Below, one piece after another: positions 2,697-55,462 of a DNA stretch of 64,000 nucleotides (position 1 is the stretch's first letter; each line of letters opens with the position of its first letter). The stretch spans positions 60,243-124,242 of the forward strand of contig CACZJK010000001.1 of assembly GCA_902781465.1 (NCBI GenBank). Reading direction: 5' to 3'. A model generated the notes under the pieces. The model was given only the letters and a program-made list of their open reading frames with translations, was not told the origin of the DNA and searched no databases. This stretch comes from an uncultured Pseudomonadota bacterium. GTDB taxonomy: Bacteria > Pseudomonadota > Alphaproteobacteria > Rs-D84. Made by a program: the position numbers and the translations under genes.

Positions 2697-3095
2697 TTAA
2701 CTACATGCCTCGTTAACCTCTTCTTGGGTTGCAAGACCTTTCTCTTGTAATTTTTTTAAATTGTCGCAATCTTTGTCAGATTGTGATCGCAAATCAGAAG
2801 CCATCCCTGGTACATTACTTGTTTTACCGCCACTACCAGATGTTCCGTTTAACTTTTGTGATAATTTTACATTTGCAACAACACCTACACCCGTCGCGAC
2901 AAGTGTTGTTATACCCGCTATCTTGAATCCTTGGGTCGATTTTTCACATTGTTTTAATACTTCATATTTTTCATCACGTGTTTTTGTGTATCTGGCTATC
3001 TCAGAATCTAACATTTGATTGCGTATATCCAAATTCATATCTGCCATTGATACAATTGGAACAAACACCAAAAGAACTGTCATTATCTTTTTCAT
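2697..3095 (-). CDS. family E small exported protein (coiled-coil plus glycine-zipper segment); paralog of 18955-19767
   Basis: Signal peptide present. CEKSTQGFKIAGITTLVATGVGVVANV aligns with CMGTNKGLKIAGISTLGLTAAGVAANI in the paralog. It overlaps the upstream gene by 4 nt (ATGA). Confidence 0.55.
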   Translation of the reverse strand: MKKIMTVLLVFVPIVSMADMNLDIRNQMLDSEIARYTKTRDEKYEVLKQCEKSTQGFKIAGITTLVATGVGVVANVKLSQKLNGTSGSGGKTSNVPGMASDLRSQSDKDCDNLKKLQEKGLATQEEVNEACS

Positions 3096-3388
3096 TTTTG
3101 ACCGTCCTTTGGTTTTGTTGGTGCTTTCTTTTTTTCATTGATTTTAACAGCCTGAACTATCGCCGCCGTTCCTGTCGCCGCAACGCCAACGCTACCAATT
3201 ACAGTTGCCGCGACCCAACCTTTCTTGGTCTTTTCGCAACGCGTCATTTCAGAATCTATTTGCTGAATTTCGTTTTTCAGTGTTTGAAGAACTTCTTCTT
3301 TATATCGGACTTGTTCGGCCAATTCAGCATCATCGGCATACGCATTACATATGCATATTATTGATAAACCGAATAATATTTTTTTCAT
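3092..3388 (-). CDS. family D small exported protein (coiled-coil plus glycine-zipper TM-like segment); paralog of 19770-20144
   Basis: Signal peptide MKKILFGLSIICICNAYA. CEKTKKGWVAATVIGSVGVAATGTAAIVQAVKI aligns with CEKQKKGWIAATVIGSAGVVSTGIAAGVQGVKI in the paralog. Confidence 0.55.
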   Translation of the reverse strand: MKKILFGLSIICICNAYADDAELAEQVRYKEEVLQTLKNEIQQIDSEMTRCEKTKKGWVAATVIGSVGVAATGTAAIVQAVKINEKKKAPTKPKDGQK

Positions 3389-3424
3389 TTATTTAACCCC
3401 GTTTTTTATATTTTCTTCAAACAC

Positions 3425-3592
3425 AATTAAACCGCCATAAAGCAAGCGGTTGGAGGCTCAAAACAATTCTAGTGGAAATTGCGTGCTTATTCGATATATT
3501 CGCAACCCTCCAACCATAGTTGGAGATGTTTATCGTCATCTAGACGCCACTAAAATGGGTTTTGAGTCCCAATCAGCAAAACTCTTGCTGAT
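3425..3592 (-). ncRNA. R1 structured leader RNA, copy 5 (upstream of family D gene)
   Basis: Reverse complement contains a -10 TATAAT box, hairpin AUCAGCAA-GAGU-UUGCUGAU and the long-range helix CUCAAAAC/GUUUUGAG. Hairpin 2 is CGUC-uaga-GACG and hairpin 3 is CUCCAAC-UAU-GGUUGGAGGG. It ends with CCUCCAACCGC, an AACCGC/GCGGUU terminator with a U-tract, and then the SD and ATG at 3388. Confidence 0.7.
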
Positions 3593-3711
3593 ACCGTTTA
3601 TTATACCATATTTCCCAAATAAAAAAAGTAAAAAAATATGCGTATTTTTCCAAAGAAGTTTTTATTGAAATCGTGTAATTATTTGCTATGCTTTCCGTCA
3701 AAGGAAGCATT

Positions 3712-7193: not shown

Positions 7194-7227
7194 GTTGTAT
7201 AAAATAACAGTTTCAGATAAAATAATT

Positions 7228-7410
7228 TTGTCAGCAAGAGTTTTGCTGATGAGGCTTGAGAACCTGTGATAAAGTGGCGTCTAGAAAAAGCGGACGTAAA
7301 ATGCTCCAACCTATGGTTGGAGGGCTGCGAATATATGGAATAAGCAGCGCAATTTCCACTTTGAATTGTTCTCAACCTCCAACCGCCTTTCTTTTAAGTG
7401 CGGTTTTAAT
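7228..7410 (+). ncRNA. R1 structured leader RNA, copy 1 (upstream of family C gene)
   Basis: A -10 box GATAAAAT sits at 7216-7223. Hairpin UCAGCAA-GAGU-UUGCUGA is followed by long-range helix UUGAGAAC/GUUCUCAA. Hairpin 2 is CGUC..GACG, then CUCCAACC-UAU-GGUUGGAGGG, hairpin CUGCG..CGCAG, CCUCCAACCGCC and a terminator. Confidence 0.7.
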
Positions 7411-8211
7411 TTTTTTGCCGTTCTGGCTGTTCTTGGAACGACGCAAGGTTCTCCCCTTGTTGGGGGAGTGCGGCGCAGCCGGAGGGGGGTTAAGACAAAA
7501 GGAACAAAATGTGTTGTGTGTTACGGTGCAACATTTAATCAATATTGGTATATCGAAGATAACGCACCAATACAAACATCTTGCACCACCGGTGGCGATA
7601 TAATATTACCAACCCCACCAATCAAATATGGATATGATTTTATCGGTTGGGAGAAATTACCATATGTTCCAATTGAGTATTTGGAAAGCACCGGAACACA
7701 GTATATTGATACGGGGCTAACTGTGAATGATGGTGATATAAGTGCAACCGCTGTTTTTATGCCGACCAGTTTTGTTGTAAACGATACTTATGCATGTATT
7801 TTTGGTATTAATGGAAACTTTCAGGCTGCCTACACTGGTACTGGTACAGCACACATAGGCAACACTTCGTCCTTACAACAATTTTTTTATCTTTATAAAA
7901 AAGCAACTGTTAAGGGTGTTTTATCGTCAAGTATGCCTCAAATATATTATGTTGATAATGTTTCTACTGGTTTGTCGAGAACTTTTAATACAGATAAAAG
8001 GTTAATGTTATTAGATGCGGAACCTCATAGGTTTGCCGCACGTGGTAGATTGTATAGTTTCATTGCTTCTAGAAATAATAAAGTAATTATGGATCTTATC
8101 CCCGTTCTTGATTCCAACGGCACACCATGTATGTATGACGTGGTGGAAAAGAAATTTTATTACAACGCCGGTACCGGTCAATTCATCGCTGGTCCAGTTA
8201 TTGGGGAATAG
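7366..8211 (+). CDS. family C exported-protein paralog with GW (Listeria-Bacteroides-type) repeat; 5' end disrupted (pseudogene or internal GTG start at about 7471)
   Basis: From CVVCYGATFNQYWY onward it is collinear with 24067-24855 (LPTPPIKYGYDFIGWE motif). The paralog's signal peptide is replaced by read-through of the R1 leader plus a GC-rich palindromic repeat, with no ATG in frame near the homologous start. Confidence 0.4.
   Translation: MFSTSNRLSFKCGFNFFAVLAVLGTTQGSPLVGGVRRSRRGVKTKGTKCVVCYGATFNQYWYIEDNAPIQTSCTTGGDIILPTPPIKYGYDFIGWEKLPYVPIEYLESTGTQYIDTGLTVNDGDISATAVFMPTSFVVNDTYACIFGINGNFQAAYTGTGTAHIGNTSSLQQFFYLYKKATVKGVLSSSMPQIYYVDNVSTGLSRTFNTDKRLMLLDAEPHRFAARGRLYSFIASRNNKVIMDLIPVLDSNGTPCMYDVVEKKFYYNAGTGQFIAGPVIGE
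7447..7491 (+). repeat. GC-rich palindromic repeat (GGTTCTCCCC..GGGGGAGTGCGGCGCAGCCGGAGGGGGG); second copy at 23267-23310
   Basis: Near-identical 45-bp GC-rich block in a roughly 35% GC genome, also present at 23267-23310. It contains a CTCCCC-N-GGGGGAG dyad. Confidence 0.7.
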
Positions 8212-8400
8212 CCCAGGTTCCGCCCCCATGGGGAGGGGAACCCGCAGGGCTTGTTTCGCCATAGCCTTGGCGACGGCGAATGGAGGGGGTAATCCGGTAC
8301 ATTCAAAATAACGAAATACTGGAACAAAAACCAACCCCCCTCCTGCTACGCGAACTCCCCCACAGGGGGAGAACCTTCACTCTGGAATAAGGAGATAAAT
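8212..8400 (+). repeat. GC-rich quasi-palindromic spacer between the family C and B genes (CCCCCATGGGG, CTCCCCCACAGGGGGAG)
   Basis: Homologous to 23874-24066. It contains several C(4-6)N(2-4)G(4-6) hairpin motifs. Confidence 0.6.
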
Positions 8401-23266: not shown

Positions 23267-23310
23267 GGTTCTCCCCCCGTGGGGGAGTGCGGCGCAGCCG
23301 GAGGGGGGTA
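23267..23310 (+). repeat. GC-rich palindromic repeat (second copy of the 7447-7491 repeat)
   Basis: GGTTCTCCCCCCGTGGGGGAGTGCGGCGCAGCCGGAGGGGGG. An additional palindrome TCTCCCCCACATTGGGGGAGA lies at 23380-23400. Confidence 0.7.
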
Positions 23311-23402
23311 TTCTGGTTTATTTGTTATACCGAACGACTGGGACAATTGTTTTTTCAACCCCCTCACCACTTCGTGGTCCTCTCCCCCACATTGGGGGAG
23401 AA

Positions 23403-23873
23403 CTAATTTGGGTTCTTAATCCGCCATCCGCCAAATACATATCCAGGGCGAACTGGTGTTGGGGGCAGGGTTATCGCACCACCATATTGACAGGTATTTT
23501 GGGTAATATTCGTCCCGTCGTCCCAGTTTATCGTTATCGTATGTGGACGAAATACCGCACGTAAAACCACAGGTGCATTTGATGCACATATGTTGTTCAT
23601 ATTGTTTGTTATGTTTGTTGTGTATTCTGCACCAGAAAAATTGTTTTCATTAAAACTGTAAGTCCCACCATTACATACATAACCATTTGGGCATAATTCA
23701 CAAGACAAAGCATTGGCGGGTAAATAATAACCGGATAAACATGTTTCAGTATGCGGAACAAATTTTGCACGATATGCACCAGAATTATTACATCCGGCTA
23801 TAATATCATTGGTGATATATTCCGCATATACCGGTTGTATAAATAATAAAGATAATAACAAAATTTTTTTCAT
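23403..23873 (-). CDS. family B exported protein with GW repeat (paralog of 8401-8871)
   Basis: Near-identical to the copy at 8401-8871, in inverted orientation. Confidence 0.6.
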   Translation of the reverse strand: MKKILLLSLLFIQPVYAEYITNDIIAGCNNSGAYRAKFVPHTETCLSGYYLPANALSCELCPNGYVCNGGTYSFNENNFSGAEYTTNITNNMNNICASNAPVVLRAVFRPHTITINWDDGTNITQNTCQYGGAITLPPTPVRPGYVFGGWRIKNPN

Positions 23874-24066: not shown

Positions 24067-24855
24067 CTATTCCCCTGAACCGACTATTGGTCCGGCTATA
24101 AAATCACCTGTACCTTGGTTATAATAAAATTTACCTTCTACTTTATCGAACATACATGGTGTGCCGTTGCCGTCAAGGACAGGGATAAAGTCACGGACGA
24201 GAATATCGTTGTCGTAGATTTTTACGTAATAAAATCTTTCACTACCACTAATTATTGGCGAACCGTCAGAGTTCGTTGCAAACAATGTTAAAGTATAATC
24301 ACATGTAAAAATTGCAGGGTTGCTTTGCATAGTAGATATTGTAAAACCATTTACTGTTACAGTTGCTATGTTTTTATTTTTATCAAATGTTATAATTTTA
24401 TTATAAAGGTCTAGTGTCGTATTTCCCCATGTTATTTGAGTATTATAATCACTTCTTAAATTGTCTATAGACACCGAGGGGTTTACACTTGCATCAAAAC
24501 TATTTTTTAATGGAGATGCACCAACAACAGTTCTTGCTCCGAATATCCAGCCACCATTTCTCAATATCATTACATTTGCCACTACTCTTGTATCTTGATT
24601 TGGATAATACCCCGTATCAATATACTGTGTTCCTGTGCTCTCCAGGTATTCGATTCGTTGGATTAGTAATTGTTCCCAACCGATAAAGTCATATCCGTAT
24701 TTGGTTGGTGGGGTTGGTAATATTATATCACCACCGGTGGTACAAGATGTTTGTATTGGTGTATTATCTTCAACATACCAATATTGATTAAAAGTTGCAC
24801 CGTAACACACAACACATATAAATAATGTGATTACAGATATTAAAAATTTTTTCAT
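24067..24855 (-). CDS. family C exported protein with GW (Listeria-Bacteroides-type) repeat
   Basis: ATG at 24855 is preceded by AAGGGGGAA. Signal peptide MKKFLISVITLFICVVCYG, and the protein carries ILPTPPTKYGYDFIGWE. Confidence 0.6.
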   Translation of the reverse strand: MKKFLISVITLFICVVCYGATFNQYWYVEDNTPIQTSCTTGGDIILPTPPTKYGYDFIGWEQLLIQRIEYLESTGTQYIDTGYYPNQDTRVVANVMILRNGGWIFGARTVVGASPLKNSFDASVNPSVSIDNLRSDYNTQITWGNTTLDLYNKIITFDKNKNIATVTVNGFTISTMQSNPAIFTCDYTLTLFATNSDGSPIISGSERFYYVKIYDNDILVRDFIPVLDGNGTPCMFDKVEGKFYYNQGTGDFIAGPIVGSGE

Positions 24856-24874
24856 AAAATTCCCCCTTTGCCAA

Positions 24875-25062
24875 AAAAAGACCGTCCAAAGGGCGGTCAG
24901 GGAGGTGGTAAAGATTAACAAAACGAAATCTATCTCCCCGACCATAATATCAGGGACACATGCGATGCAAAAAGCACCGAAAAAACATCAGATACGATGC
25001 TTTCGCATCGGTTTTGTTAAAGGCTTACCACAGCCCTGAACCCAATTCCCATTGGATTCAAA
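24875..25062 (-). ncRNA. R2 structured leader RNA, copy b (upstream of family C gene)
   Basis: -10 GATAGAAT in reverse complement at 25068-25076. Hairpins are CCAAU-GGGA-AUUGG and CGAUGC-GAAA-GCAUCG. An alternative terminator GCAUCG..CGGUGC plus U5 is possible. Second terminator is GACCG..CGGUC plus U7, about 20 nt before the ATG. Homologous to 43556-43762. Confidence 0.55.
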
Positions 25063-25133
25063 TACTATTCTATCATAACAACACAAAAAAACAACACCTG
25101 TTTTCACAGGTGCTGCATTGAATTATAAAAAAT

Positions 25134-29963: not shown

Positions 29964-30019
29964 ACCGGTCAACACCGGTTTTTTTATTGCAATAAATAAT
30001 TATTTTCTGATAAAATAAT

Positions 30020-30210
30020 TTTGTCGGCAAGTATTTTGTCGGTGGGGTGTAGCTACCTCTGAAATAAATCGGCGTCTGGGAAAAAGCGGACGTAAAATGC
30101 TCCAACTGATAAAAATTTGGTTGGAGGGTTGCAAAATATACTGAATATGCACACAATTTCCGATTTAAATTGTAGCTAACCTCCAACCGCCCGATTTTCT
30201 GGCGGTTTTG
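30020..30210 (+). ncRNA. R1 structured leader RNA, copy 2 (upstream of family A gene)
   Basis: Promoter TTGCAA-N17-ATAAAAT. Long-range helix GGGGU-UAGCUA/UAGCUA-ACCUC. Hairpin 2 is CGUC..GACG, then CUCCAAC..GGUUGGAGGG, CCUCCAACCGCC and terminator CCGCCCGAUUUUCUGGCGG plus U4. Confidence 0.7.
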
Positions 30211-30236
30211 TTTGTAAAAAAACAAAAGAGGATACA

Positions 30237-30713
30237 ATGACAAAAATTATAATGATAATCGCCGGATTAATAACAACAATTCCAACATATGCAACAACAA
30301 TGTGCGCCGCAAATGATACCGTTGCCATCGTATTAGATCCAAGTATTGAAAAAATTGATATGGGTGCAGACGCTACAAGCCAAACTTGGTGGGCACAATT
30401 ACCCTTCGGACGCGTCAGCGGAACCGCAGCACTTATAAATAAAAACTGCACACAAGGTCAAGCCACATCAGAATTAACCGACATTGATAATAATGGTGAT
30501 ACAAAACGTATTGTGGGCGGTGAAAAATACGGCAAAGTTTGTTGGTGTAAATTGATACATCCTGCCATGTCTAAATGGGTTTGCAATGTTTATTCAGGCT
30601 ATTATAACGATAATTTTGGTTTTGATAGAGGTTCTTTAGCACATTGTGTTGGAATGTGTGCGACACTATTCGGAAGTATAAACTCCGGTCTTTTTGGTTC
30701 GATTGAAAACTAA
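30237..30713 (+). CDS. family A small secreted Cys-rich protein (TYATTMCA family)
   Basis: Signal peptide. Conserved with the 36822 and 55109 ORFs (PTYATTMCA.NDTV..VLDPSI, WWAQ.PFGRVSGTAA, VGGEKYG.VCWCK). Confidence 0.6.
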   Translation: MTKIIMIIAGLITTIPTYATTMCAANDTVAIVLDPSIEKIDMGADATSQTWWAQLPFGRVSGTAALINKNCTQGQATSELTDIDNNGDTKRIVGGEKYGKVCWCKLIHPAMSKWVCNVYSGYYNDNFGFDRGSLAHCVGMCATLFGSINSGLFGSIEN

Positions 30714-36583: not shown

Positions 36584-36623
36584 TTTTCTCTTTTTTTAAT
36601 AAATAATGTTTGCTAGAATATAT

Positions 36624-36806
36624 CTGTCAGCAAGAGTTTTGCTGATGAGGCTTAGAAACCTGCTTCGATATGCGTCCACAAGAAGACGTTAATTCTCCAA
36701 TCAATAATTTGGTTGGAGGGCTGTGATATACATAAATAAACGGCGCAATCTCATATCGAATTGTTTCTAACCTCCAACCGCCCGATTTTCTGGCGGTATT
36801 TTTTCG
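36624..36806 (+). ncRNA. R1 structured leader RNA, copy 3 (upstream of family A gene)
   Basis: -10 TAGAAT. Hairpin UCAGCAA-GAGU-UUGCUGA is followed by long-range helix UUAGAAAC/GUUUCUAA. Hairpin 2 is CGUC-cacaagaa-GACG, then CUCCAA..GGUUGGAGGG, CCUCCAACCGCC and terminator CCGCCCGAUUUUCUGGCGG plus U. Confidence 0.7.
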
Positions 36807-36821
36807 AAATGGAGGAAACAA

Positions 36822-37292
36822 ATGAAACGATTTTTTATAATATCAGCATTAACAATAATAATGCCAACATACGCAACAACAATGTGCGCCCAAAATGACA
36901 CAGTCGCAGTTATATTAGATCCATCAATAATTGCAACAAGTTATGGTTCTGATGCAACAACTGGAACATGGTGGGCGCAATTCCCGTTTGGTCGAGTTAG
37001 TGGTACTGCCGCTATGCTAAATAAATCATGTACCCAAGGTCAAGCAATATCACAATTAACCGATACAAATAACGGTGAAACTAAATTGGTTGTTGGGGGT
37101 GAAAAATACGGTCGTGTTTGTTGGTGTAAAATAACACACCCGACAACATCTAAATGGGTGTGTAATATAACCGCAATTAACTATGGTGGCAGTGATTTCA
37201 CCGGATGTGTAAATTTGTGCGGACGGTTTTTGACAAACACCTATCACAATAGTGCATTAGAATCAGGTTTATTTGGTTCAATTTCAAATTAA
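36822..37292 (+). CDS. family A small secreted Cys-rich protein
   Basis: Paralog of 30237-30713. SD GGAGG is 8 nt upstream. Confidence 0.6.
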   Translation: MKRFFIISALTIIMPTYATTMCAQNDTVAVILDPSIIATSYGSDATTGTWWAQFPFGRVSGTAAMLNKSCTQGQAISQLTDTNNGETKLVVGGEKYGRVCWCKITHPTTSKWVCNITAINYGGSDFTGCVNLCGRFLTNTYHNSALESGLFGSISN

Positions 37293-38877: not shown

Positions 38878-38951
38878 TGGAGGCCAGGGTCGGAATCGAA
38901 CCGGCATCCAAGGATTTGCAGTCCTCTGCATAACCACTCTGCCACCTGGCC
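38878..38951 (-). tRNA. tRNA-Cys (anticodon GCA)
   Basis: Reverse complement GGCCAGGTGGCAGAGTGGTTATGCAGAGGACTGCAAATCCTTGGATGCCGGTTCGATTCCGACCCTGGCCTCCA has anticodon loop CTGCAAA and is collinear with E. coli tRNA-Cys. Confidence 0.85.
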
Positions 38952-43555: not shown

Positions 43556-43762
43556 TATGAATCCAATGGGAATTGGGTTTGGGGCTGTGATAAGCCCAAT
43601 CAGGTCGGTGCGAAAGCATCGTTATATTGGTGTTTCGGTGTTTTTTTTGCATCGTCAACATCCCTGACTAACAAGGTCGGGGAGCCGTCATACCGTAAGG
43701 TGACGGAATCATAACCTGATTGATTTATCAACTCCCCGACCGCCTTTTCATTGGCGGTTTTT
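43556..43762 (+). ncRNA. R2 structured leader RNA, copy a (promoter TTGCAC-N16-TAGAAT at 43525-43552)
   Basis: Homologous to the reverse complement of 24875-25062. Hairpins are CCAAU-GGGA-AUUGG, GGGC..GCCC and CGGUGC-GAAA-GCAUCG. An alternative stem GCAUCG..CGGUGU plus U8 is possible. A long helix GGUCGGGGAG/CUCCCCGACC encloses CCGUCA..UGACGG. Terminator is ACCGCC..GGCGGU plus U5. Confidence 0.55.
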
Positions 43763-43780
43763 ATAAAATGGAGTTTTCCT

Positions 43781-44068
43781 ATGCCACAAACTAAACAAAT
43801 TAACAAAATCGACCAAACTGAAAGATTAATAGAAGCGGTTGAAAACCTGTCTTTTTCAATCGACAATTTGAAAGACAATAGTTCGCGTGATTATTCACCA
43901 TATTTAACAAATATTTTTATATCTTTGAAAATATTGGATAAAATTCAACACGAATTACACATATTAAATAAAACATTTATTATGTCTGCTCTGCTTTTAA
44001 GTGCAACAAAAAATCCAGAAAAAACATTAAATGAATATCACAAAATTATTGACCAATATTTAAATTAA
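43781..44068 (+). CDS. small hypothetical protein
   Basis: ATG at 43781 is preceded by GGAG. 95 aa with no signal peptide, followed by a terminator. Confidence 0.4.
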   Translation: MPQTKQINKIDQTERLIEAVENLSFSIDNLKDNSSRDYSPYLTNIFISLKILDKIQHELHILNKTFIMSALLLSATKNPEKTLNEYHKIIDQYLN

Positions 44069-54693: not shown

Positions 54694-54769
54694 GCCGGAA
54701 TAGCTCAGTTGGTAGAGCATCTCATTCGTAATGAGGGGGTCGCAGGTTCGAATCCTGTTTCCGGCACCA
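54694..54769 (+). tRNA. tRNA-Thr (anticodon CGT)
   Basis: Acceptor GCCGGAA/TTCCGGC, anticodon loop TTCGTAA, T-loop GGTTCGAATCC and an encoded CCA. Confidence 0.85.
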
Positions 54770-54913
54770 CGAAAAATTGTTAACCCGCACAATAAAAGTG
54801 CGGGTTTAAAATTTTTCAGTGTCGCCATGTAATGAACATAGTGAATACAAGCAGACTTTTTTATTTTAATAACTTTTCCCTTTTTTTCATAAACAATCTC
54901 TGATAAAATATTT

Positions 54914-55092
54914 TTGTCAGAAAGAATTTTTCTGATGAGGCGTAAGAACCTGTTAATGTATTGTGTCCGCGGGGACAAAAAACACCTCCAATCGTCTTTT
55001 GGTTGGAGGGTTGCGATATATATGAATAAGCACGCTATTTTCAATACATTATAGTTCTTAACCTCCAACCGCCTTTTATATCGGCGGTTTTT
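54914..55092 (+). ncRNA. R1 structured leader RNA, copy 4 (upstream of family A gene)
   Basis: -10 GATAAAAT. Hairpin UCAGAAA-GAAU-UUUCUGA is compensatory relative to the other copies. Long-range helix is GUAAGAAC/GUUCUUAA. Hairpin 2 is GUCC-gcgg-GGAC (also compensatory), then CCUCCAA..GGUUGGAGGG, CCUCCAACCGCC and terminator CCGCCUUUUAUAUCGGCGG plus U5. Confidence 0.7.
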
Positions 55093-55108
55093 AAAAACGG
55101 AGGAAAAG

Positions 55109-55462
55109 ATGAAAAAAATATTTTTAATAATTTCTTTATTGGCAACCATACCAACATACGCAACAACAATGTGCGCCCAAAATGATACAGTTGTAGTGGT
55201 ATTAGATCCGACAATATCCGGAGACCGCGGTTATAACTCAAGCAATGGTAATTGGAGTTTTATAACAAAATCATATGCAATATATGGCGAAACTAAAATA
55301 GAAAACAGCAAATGTTTTTACAGAATAACCCACCCATTTATAATTCCATGGAGATTCCATACAAATACAACTAGCGTAGGCGGGTGTGCCGACAGTGTAG
55401 CTGTTGCATTTGGCAATGGGATAGAATTAAGGAGGTCGATTTTTTCATCAATCACTGATTAA
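55109..55462 (+). CDS. family A small secreted Cys-rich protein (diverged, 117 aa)
   Basis: MKKIFLIISLLATIPTYATTMCAQNDTVVVVLDP is shared with the 30237 and 36822 ORFs. SD GGAGG present. Confidence 0.55.
   Translation: MKKIFLIISLLATIPTYATTMCAQNDTVVVVLDPTISGDRGYNSSNGNWSFITKSYAIYGETKIENSKCFYRITHPFIIPWRFHTNTTSVGGCADSVAVAFGNGIELRRSIFSSITD

Follow-up and report, generated by a model that had tools for sequence, protein, structure and literature searches.

A structured RNA element, herein termed R1, occurs seven times in a 64,000-nucleotide (nt) stretch of contig CACZJK010000001.1 (the window, whose positions serve as coordinates throughout), a chromosomal segment of ~38% G+C that carries the housekeeping genes truB, rpsO, and mnmG as well as tRNA genes and that matches a 279-kb scaffold from a gut metagenome assembly in ENA; the copy under study lies at 36622-36809 on the plus strand. 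R1 is genuine and widespread, an RNA family so far missing from the catalogues that builds on the fold of an Rfam family which is itself known but poorly understood; its standing as a structured RNA family under selection is close to certain. The known family is sRNA-Xcc1 (RF02221), an 88-nt small RNA (sRNA) of Xanthomonas campestris that is found in integron cassettes, prophages, and plasmids of Proteobacteria. R1 itself is probably a cis-acting leader of ~180 nt that terminates transcription conditionally, a reading suggested by the combination of a promoter, three covarying switch segments, an overlap with a terminator, and an adjacent Shine-Dalgarno (SD) sequence; in genome-reduced gut Alphaproteobacteria, the genes under its control would be those for secreted or surface proteins and for small DNA-binding proteins of the XRE type. 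Gene regulation in these hosts, Candidatus Enterousia and its relatives, which are uncultured, genome-reduced gut bacteria, is uncharted (PMC12306168). Standing in at least five to seven copies per genome before secreted or surface protein genes and DNA-binding regulator genes, R1 would thus be a major regulatory device of its hosts.

The first-pass annotation of the window had described five copies, all of which are present where it placed them, together with every helix sequence that it quoted (its numbering takes the plus-strand copies first, with copies 1 to 4 at 7228, 30020, 36624, and 54914 and copy 5 at 3425 on the minus strand). These five can be aligned over ~185 nt, and the pattern GGTTGGAGGG-N(38-68)-CCTCCAACC matches exactly five times in the window, at the same places, with no match in 100 shuffles. 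The covariance model that the annotation had suggested was built from the five copies and searched against the window and relatives, whereby the source copies, the focal one included, were recovered at 171-186 bits. The count of five nevertheless proved too low, as two divergent copies had been missed at 24869-25064(-) and 43558-43766(+), which brings the total to seven; the five original copies are designated type A and the two divergent ones type B.

The further proposal that R1 is an RNA under structural selection, serving as a 5' leader, is borne out by covariation far above both shuffle and slid-partner controls. Two alignments were evaluated, one fitted to the model (116 sequences) and one made independently with MAFFT (112 sequences, alignment A6). 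In the model-fitted alignment, 93.4% of cells hold standard pairs and two-sided changes occur at 36 of 38 pairs, while slid partners are only 39-49% paired and none of 500 shuffles matches the observed values; in the MAFFT alignment, 90.8-92.9% of cells are paired, compared with 37-49% overall for slid-partner controls. Taken together, the two alignments show two-sided changes at 34-36 of 38-46 pairs. Covariation supports hairpins P1, P3, P5, and P6, the terminator stem, a long-range helix, and a local stem, Pa, and the hairpins that had been described as kept by co-variation indeed carry compensatory changes at nearly every pair. The 5'-terminal hairpin P1 (GUCAGCAA / UUGCUGAU; 36626-36646 in the focal copy) has two-sided changes at eight of eight pairs, with 97.5% of cells paired, in the model-fitted alignment and at seven of eight pairs, with 87.5% paired, in the independent one. 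Hairpin P3 (CGUC..GACG, 36672-36689) changes on both sides at all four of its pairs and is 93.7% paired, although it is optional and absent from short forms of the element (alignment A6). Hairpin P5 (CUGU..ACGG, 36721-36743), with a conserved GAUAUA...AAAUAA loop or internal loop, likewise shows two-sided changes at four of four pairs (94.5% paired), and hairpin P6 (CAAU..AUUG, 36746-36763) shows them at four of five (90.6% paired). A consensus of the five copies computed with RNAalifold had instead paired GGUUGGAGGG with UUUCC(A), a poorly conserved pairing that was dropped in favor of the covarying P5 and P6. As a separate observation, nine loci (L066, L014, L090, L048, L004, L043, L045, L071, and L011) carry an extra hairpin of 15-30 nt inside the P5 loop (GAAUA-[stem-loop]-AAAUAA), where sRNA-Xcc1 has its unrelated CCCGAAAGGG tip.

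The long-range helix joins the loop of hairpin Pa (36648-36661; stem AGG/CCU, loop c-UUAGAAA) to a strand ~110 nt downstream (UUUCUAA, 36764-36770), and it is real, as had been claimed: its sequence differs in every copy and yet is complementary in every copy, with two-sided changes at seven of seven pairs. The part of the claim that did not survive is the adjoining AGG/CCU extension. The AGG covaries with a local CCU or CCC, forming a Pa stem of 3-4 base pairs (AGG...CCU or GGG...CCC) with two-sided changes at four of four pairs; at columns 54:67 the pairs are GC in 67 sequences, AU in 23, and GU in 15, and A54 is accompanied by U67 in 23 of 24 cases, G54 being accompanied by C or U. The alternative pairing of AGG with the CCU of CCUCCAACC (segment 3, below) was rejected, since a C-to-A change in segment 3 is uncompensated at the 5' GGG (13 unpaired cells); in the three copies in which that segment 3 C is an A, the 5' G stays constant and the end G of GGUUGGAGG is now a U. 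The covariation of AGG with its local partner therefore indicates that the long-range helix is an H-type pseudoknot and that the supposed bulged nucleotide is its loop 1, a geometry in which loop 1 measures 1-2 nt and loop 2 is 0 nt.

Three further strands appear to constitute a switch. Segment 2 (GGUUGGAGG; GGUUGGAGGG at 36711-36720 in the focal copy) can pair with either of two strands, an upstream CUCCAAC(C), segment 1 (CUCCAAUC, 36695-36702), or the downstream CCUCCAACC, segment 3 (36771-36779); segment 1 is a near-copy of segment 3 and lies 3-13 nt from segment 2, while segment 3 lies ~50 nt downstream. The 10-mer and 9-mer that had been listed as invariant are thus conserved, but they are more than sequence blocks, being the two strands of a helix that competes with CUCCAAC and with the terminator. 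Across the 112 sequences, the helix between segments 1 and 2, which would form an anti-antiterminator hairpin, has eight pairs and is 94% paired, its changes being mostly one-sided C-to-U substitutions that weaken it. The putative antiterminator helix between segments 2 and 3 is 99.9% paired, a value to be read with the proviso that most sequences were selected by a pattern that fixes both segments, so that the informative copies are those found by the model alone in flanking DNA. Among copies outside the pattern selection, two-sided changes occur at five of nine pairs, and a C-to-A change in segment 3 is compensated by G-to-U in segment 2. The segment 2/segment 3 variants include GGUUGGAGU/ACUCCAACC (three copies), GGCAGGAGG/CCUCCUGCC, accompanied by segment 1 CUUCUGCC (two copies), and GGGAUUGGAG/CUCCAAUCCC; segment 2 is also found outside the pattern as GGGAUUGGAGC and, in the two type B window copies, as GGUCGGGGAG, which is matched there by segment 3 CCUCCCUGACC or CUCCCCGACC and by segment 1 UCCCUGA. 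Such concerted change of segments 1, 2, and 3 would not be expected unless both pairings mattered.

Segment 3 is followed by, and partly included in, a predicted intrinsic terminator (ACCGCC-loop-GGCGGU and then UAUUUUUU, 36777-36805), whose folded tail has a free energy of -11.1 kcal/mol in the focal copy and -9.6 to -13.4 kcal/mol over the copies. A simple terminator scanner missed it in the focal copy because the 9-nt loop exceeds the scanner's limit. The great majority of relatives have CCGCC-loop-GGCGG followed by U5-9, and the stem covaries (e.g., GC in 53 and AU in 50 sequences at one pair). The last 3-4 nt of segment 3 (four in most copies; AACC, GACC, or UGCC) belong to the 5' arm of the terminator, and this overlap is kept in every subtype, namely type A, type B, and the other variants; pairing between segments 2 and 3 would leave the terminator just three base pairs. 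In all seven window copies the nested minimum-energy fold is the terminator state, and an RNA prefix ending at segment 2 folds into the hairpin of segments 1 and 2, so that the OFF state looks like the default.

The flanks of the element agree with its placement in a leader. The claim that each copy has its own promoter holds in ~100 relatives, in which a sigma-70-type promoter, with a TTGCAT-like -35 box and an extended -10 box TGnTAnAAT, ends 5-8 nt before P1, frequently behind the terminator of the gene before it. In the focal copy, an extended -10 box (TGcTAGAAT) stands at 36611-36619 with a weak -35 box, on which a simple promoter scanner made no call, and transcription probably starts at ~36624-36626. 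At the other end, an SD sequence and ATG usually lie 10-35 nt after the U-run on the same strand, and 91 of 112 copies have them within 60 nt on that strand. The earlier description of an SD and ATG shortly after each element fits four of the five type A copies, at 12-30 nt, while the 7226-7416 copy differs, being followed by a GC-rich inverted repeat and then by a coding sequence (7510-8211) that lacks a start codon. The focal copy is followed by an SD (GGAGG, 36811-36815) and by the ATG (36822) of a gene for a 156-aa signal-peptide protein, the SD and gene together spanning 36811-37292 on the plus strand; there is no room for a separate promoter of this gene.

On the mechanism favored here, R1 would decide whether transcription continues into the following gene. 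In the OFF state, segment 1, being local, would pair first with segment 2, leaving segment 3 free to enter the terminator, and an RNA of ~180 nt would be released, which may have a function of its own. In the ON state, segments 2 and 3 would pair and thereby close the two hairpins P5 and P6 into a three-way core, and their helix would stack on the pseudoknot and complete an Xcc1-like fold; the terminator, stripped of its CC/GG base, would then allow RNA polymerase to read through. The balance would be set by a factor that stabilizes the pseudoknotted core or blocks segment 1, be it a small ligand, a protein, or another RNA, and the most economical reading is that this trigger stabilizes the ancestral Xcc1-like core or masks segment 1, turning the gene on. 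Changing segment 1 from CUCCAAUC to GAGGAAUC would be expected to raise read-through, and changing segment 3 outside the terminator stem would be expected to lower it.

Several points weigh against this mechanism. Transcription start sites, termination, and read-through are deduced from sequence, and the covariation in favor of the putative antiterminator comes from ~10 independent copies, to which homology with sRNA-Xcc1 is added. The enforced state with segments 2 and 3 paired is 9-18 kcal/mol less stable than the terminator state, a difference in which the energy of the pseudoknot is uncredited. Three copies (L030, L112, and L122) have no U-run after the last hairpin, and the 81 downstream proteins of relatives yielded no common pathway that would point to a ligand. 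Lastly, sRNA-Xcc1 has been published as a free, trans-acting sRNA of 88 nt (PMC2996969).

The last point leads to an alternative that is possible, if on balance unlikely, in which the R1 copies are genes for free trans-acting sRNAs and the downstream genes are expressed independently or by leak-through; the copy-specific pseudoknot strand would serve as a target seed, and such a role could coexist with one in cis. Each copy is a complete promoter-to-terminator unit whose most stable nested fold is the terminator state, the related sRNA-Xcc1 is a discrete RNA of ~88-100 nt with mapped ends (PMC2996969), and Xylella holds seven Xcc1 copies (PMC12189769). Nevertheless, the same-strand SD and ATG 10-35 nt past the U-run in most copies leave no space for another promoter, the Pa loop already engages the variable strand in cis, and no second copy of the loop sequence was found near the downstream start codon; moreover, the covariation of segment 1 with segments 2 and 3 and the terminator overlap in every subtype would be needless in a trans-acting RNA. 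The absence of a shared, signal-suggesting function among the downstream genes would also suit a constitutive structured 5' untranslated region, acting as a stabilizer or expression enhancer with a leaky terminator fixed at low read-through and without any sensing or switching. R1 stands behind strong consensus promoters, and 5'-terminal hairpins, of which P1 could be one, often protect mRNAs. A fixed attenuator, however, needs no 110-nt pseudoknotted core conserved over ~75 species, nor would it explain why two mutually exclusive partners of segment 2 are both kept by compensatory change, and such an untranslated region is therefore considered improbable.

Two other explanations fare considerably worse. 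The succession of pairings between segments 1 and 2, segments 2 and 3, and segment 3 and the terminator strand (3:4) resembles that of classical trp- or his-type attenuators, in which the translation of a short open reading frame in the leader chooses between hairpins, and GGAGG does occur within segment 2, as do ATG triplets in some copies; but when the five type A copies are read directly, they have neither a start codon nor a frame in common, two of them have no ATG after P1, and the frames stop after 6-15 codons at different places. Since the variation tracks base pairing rather than codons, and weak Rfam matches to Phe, Leu, or Trp leaders fall elsewhere in the window and on none of the element cores, a leader peptide is very improbable. 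Least credible of all is a DNA-level repeat devoid of RNA function, whether an element like the repetitive extragenic palindromes (REP) or miniature inverted-repeat transposable elements (MITE) or an array of protein-binding sites. Multiple intergenic copies, seven of them within 64 kb, would be in keeping with such a repeat, yet the elements are always oriented towards the downstream gene, the covariation lies far above both controls, and the pairing-preserving changes are strand-specific, including G-U pairs, which have no equivalent on the opposite strand (terminal repeats and target duplications, the other marks of REP or MITE elements, were not searched for). Conditional termination in cis is the preferred reading.

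The remaining type A copies in the window lie at 3419-3596(-) (172.6 bits, pseudoknot CUCAAAA/UUUUGAG, downstream gene 3092-3388(-)), 7226-7416(+) (185.6 bits, UUGAGAA/UUCUCAA), 30019-30218(+) (173.7 bits, UAGCUA/UAGCUA, downstream gene 30237-30713), and 54912-55095(+) (171.3 bits, UAAGAA/UUCUUA, downstream gene 55109-55462). The two type B copies match the model weakly, but on inspection of the sequence they are genuine divergent relatives with the layout of type A and with GGUCGGGGAG in place of GGUUGGAGG. The copy at 24869-25064(-) (23.2 bits, also folded; downstream gene 24067-24855(-)) has segment 1 UCCCUGA, segment 2 GGUCGGGGAG, and segment 3 CCUCCCUGACC, lacks P5 and P6, and ends in a terminator, GACCG..CGGUC, followed by a U-run. 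The copy at 43558-43766(+) (18.6 bits, downstream gene 43781-44068) has Pa GGGC[UGUGAUAA]GCCC, segments 1, 2, and 3 reading UCCCUGAC, GGUCGGGGAG, and CUCCCCGACC, respectively, and a terminator. Two tRNA genes lie close to R1 units: one (54694-54766) precedes the 54912 copy by 145 nt, and the other (38881-38951) shares the gene neighborhood of the focal copy.

Beyond the window, a pattern scan of one genome per species matched at least 115 DNA stretches, nearly all from metagenome-assembled genomes of gut or rumen Alphaproteobacteria, which bear labels such as Candidatus Enterousia, "Rickettsiales", or "Alphaproteobacteria bacterium". The model confirmed ~110 full-length elements in the first 99 of these loci and three in two others, and the loci that bear R1 come from at least ~75 assemblies, as counted by accession prefixes. 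The order Rs-D84, to which Enterousia belongs, consists of uncultured fermentative bacteria whose genomes are mostly below 1 Mb (PMC12306168). In loci fetched around one copy, a second copy occurs about once per 70 kb, from which at least 10 copies per genome may reasonably be inferred, with the window locally enriched. Pattern matches in Lewinellaceae, Saprospiraceae, Streptomyces, Nitrospirota, and others are chance palindromes and were rejected; among the matches in other phyla, only L070 scored with the R1 model, and weakly so (17.5 bits, E = 0.0006). True copies (95-124 bits) were also found in IMG/VR, on four contigs classed as viral (L118, L119, L122, and L123). Full-length elements of 80-110 bits also occur on contigs of genomes labeled Bacteroidota (L004, L015, and L054 in CAZJGX01, Muribaculaceae; L022 in CAVGNU01, Bacteroides fragilis), which are most likely mis-binned alphaproteobacterial contigs rather than cases of cross-phylum occurrence. 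No description of the element was found in the searchable literature. With at least ~120 sequences that covary strongly, form a pseudoknot, and include a clear expression platform, the R1 alignment is well suited to submission to Rfam.

The genes that follow R1 had been described as encoding small exported proteins, which is true of many, as signal peptides are frequent among the products, but is too narrow, as many R1 copies elsewhere precede genes for XRE-type helix-turn-helix proteins. In the window, three downstream genes are paralogues that encode small, Cys-containing signal-peptide proteins without a Pfam match, while a different small secreted protein, a protein of 95 aa, and Listeria-Bacteroides-repeat proteins are the products of the others; the focal 156-aa protein has no Pfam match. 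Among the 81 downstream proteins of relatives, at least 12 are XRE/Cro-type helix-turn-helix proteins of ~70-115 aa, their genes being preceded mostly by short R1 forms without P3, while four match List_Bact_rpt and one is an outer-membrane beta-barrel; the rest have no Pfam match, many of them with signal peptides. In L030 (1934-2116), L112 (5405-5574), and L122 (8454-8621), R1 lies upstream of a gene for an ABC-type membrane protein of ~500 aa and its last hairpin is followed by AAUUAGACGGAGA; these copies may act on translation rather than on termination. With regard to the coding sequence at 7510-8211, it is Listeria-Bacteroides-repeat-like and has lost both the start codon and the signal peptide that its paralogue at 24067-24855(-) retains. 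It is flanked by GC-rich inverted repeats at 7445-7491 and 8333-8377, others of which occur at 23267-23291 and 23384-23404 in this genome of 38% G+C; each arm holds a CTCCCCC-N4-GGGGGAG palindrome, and the repeats could be REP-like elements or mark an insertion or invertible segment.

The verdict of the first-pass annotation that R1 matches no known class can be upheld only in part. A scan of the whole window against Rfam 15 at the gathering threshold returned four tRNAs and nothing on R1, and one with E-values up to 10 placed no consistent family on the R1 elements. In short-range scans of four R1 copies, however, sRNA-Xcc1 was the top match for each and the only family below an E-value of 0.01, with 30.8 bits for the focal copy, 29.1 bits for the 54912 copy, 28.0 bits for a GGCAGGAGG variant from another genome, and 32.7 bits for the type B 43558 copy, all below the gathering score of 53 bits; the match extends from segment 2 through P5, P6, and the pseudoknot strand to segment 3. 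True members, which score 68.8-79.8 bits, were collected by BLAST with the full model consensus from 223 Escherichia coli genomes and from records of Neisseria, Aeromonas, Nitratidesulfovibrio, and Pseudomonas (a truncated consensus returned nothing useful). Wherever the records carry annotation, the member precedes a same-strand gene of the BRO-N, ORF6N, or BRO family by ~40 nt; published examples precede symE in integron cassettes of Xanthomonas and an ORF6N gene in the APSE phage. All six Xcc1 loci inspected have an upstream hairpin whose loop is complementary to the strand that is unpaired in the Rfam model, with sequences that differ across five taxa (E. coli, CUCAAAA/UUUUGAG; Aeromonas, UCGAAA/UUUCGA; Nitratidesulfovibrio, CUUGAACA/UGUUCAAG; Pseudomonas, UAAGAAA/UUUCUUA; Neisseria, UAAGAA/UUCUUA). 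As this loop-to-strand pseudoknot lies outside the Rfam model, the resemblance to R1 reaches beyond that model. In four of the six loci (two of E. coli and those of Aeromonas and Nitratidesulfovibrio), a consensus-like promoter lies 90-130 nt upstream of the Rfam model. The 5' end of Xcc1 has been placed at the closing helix by rapid amplification of cDNA ends and Northern data (PMC2996969); with ~85 nt between the R1 promoter and segment 2, an R1 transcript could have its 5' end at segment 2 only after processing. The R1 model, when run on the true Xcc1 loci, detected the annotated Xcc1 element in none of them, so that the case for a relationship is made by the Rfam model and the common architecture rather than by reciprocal hits.

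The upstream part of the Xcc1 loci merits separate description. Its 5' domain is unannotated (L132 1400-1600, L133 1395-1600, L134 570-780, L135 575-800, L136 575-800, and L137 585-800) and opens with the hairpin whose loop forms the pseudoknot, behind which stands a pair of alternative hairpins, GCGG..CCGC versus CCGC..GCGG with a U-run, whose YCCGNYAG loop is conserved. At several of these loci the loop sequence of the opening hairpin recurs in a hairpin immediately ahead of the BRO-N or ORF6N SD, and in L134 a second Xcc1-like unit lies ~120 nt downstream of the first, at a sub-threshold 33.9 bits. Two of these records, L134 (NZ_CP119140.1, 2.17 Mb) and L135 (NZ_AP026896.1, 4.9 Mb), are of chromosome size despite belonging to a plasmid collection and are probably mislabeled.

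A broader proposal can be offered only tentatively, namely that the pseudoknotted core common to R1 and Xcc1 is the sensor of a new riboswitch-like class for a widely available cellular signal, gating much of the secreted and surface proteome and a set of XRE regulators in gut Alphaproteobacteria and, elsewhere, antirepressor-like and toxin genes of prophages, plasmids, and cassettes. If so, the published trans-acting sRNA Xcc1 would derive from a cis-regulatory leader by termination or processing, and the core would have multiplied in genome-reduced hosts (below 1 Mb, with few regulators), acting there through an intrinsic terminator. The Xcc1 family itself can be re-read: its "unpaired" strand has a covarying partner in an upstream loop and its leaders stand before prophage and cassette genes; its long-unclear function thereby becomes testable as cis-regulation.

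Among known systems, riboswitches and attenuators share with R1 a covarying, pseudoknotted, sensor-like fold, a strand in common with the terminator, a position between promoter and SD, and occurrence in multiple copies. R1 has both a covarying structured domain in the 5' leader and an overlapping terminator/antiterminator platform, as found in the adenine pbuE riboswitch, an ON-switch; it departs from riboswitches in its additional anti-antiterminator segment 1, in a gene context that suggests no ligand, and in the genes themselves, whose products are secreted proteins and XRE regulators and not enzymes or transporters. At the level of structural analogy, SAM-II and preQ1-II, which are H-type pseudoknot aptamers, similarly combine a short stem 1, a loop 1 of 1-2 nt, a stem 2 of 6-7 base pairs, and no loop 2, but in R1 a loop 3 of ~110-150 nt holds the three-way core, and there is neither sequence similarity nor an Rfam match. 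The C4 antisense RNA (RF01695) of the immI system of phages P1 and P7 (Citron and Schuster, 1990, as cited in PMC8201110) offers another comparison. According to its model structure, C4 shares the topology in which a closing helix encloses two hairpins and an unpaired strand precedes the 3' half of that helix, and it is encoded in the leader of the transcript that it controls; its model gave no match to four R1 copies at E-values up to 10, and its output is a translational block with polarity rather than an intrinsic terminator. Partner sites of C4, a1/b1 and a2/b2, lie elsewhere in the same leader, and the loop repeats of Xcc1 recall a1/a2; a comparable second site near the start codon was rejected for R1, for which the mean self-match was 3.67 nt, against 3.57 nt for mismatched pairs of copies.

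The closest likeness is to sRNA-Xcc1, which has the same 9-base-pair, G-rich closing helix (GGNNGGRGG / CCYCCNNCC), two hairpins, a 6-7 nt strand before the 3' half, and the loop-to-strand pseudoknot, is present in multiple copies in some genomes, and stands directly upstream of a same-strand gene (symE, ORF6N, or BRO-N). The first hairpin likewise has an A/U-rich ...AAUA.../GAAUAA loop, such that the P5 loop aligns with the AAUACA...GAAUAA hairpin of Xcc1, although between AAUACAAUA-CCCGAAAGGG-GAAUAA in Xcc1 and GAAUAUAU(U/C)GAAUAA in R1 only the flanking AAUA and GAAUAA are common, R1 being without the CCCGAAAGGG tip. Hosts and gene classes differ, and in the Xcc1 loci inspected the core is preceded by a terminator-like hairpin and followed by one that is no terminator, whereas in R1 segment 2 comes straight after segment 1 and segment 3 overlaps an intrinsic terminator. 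R1 is therefore read here as an uncatalogued, remote relative of sRNA-Xcc1, in which a known fold appears to have been rebuilt as a transcription attenuator.

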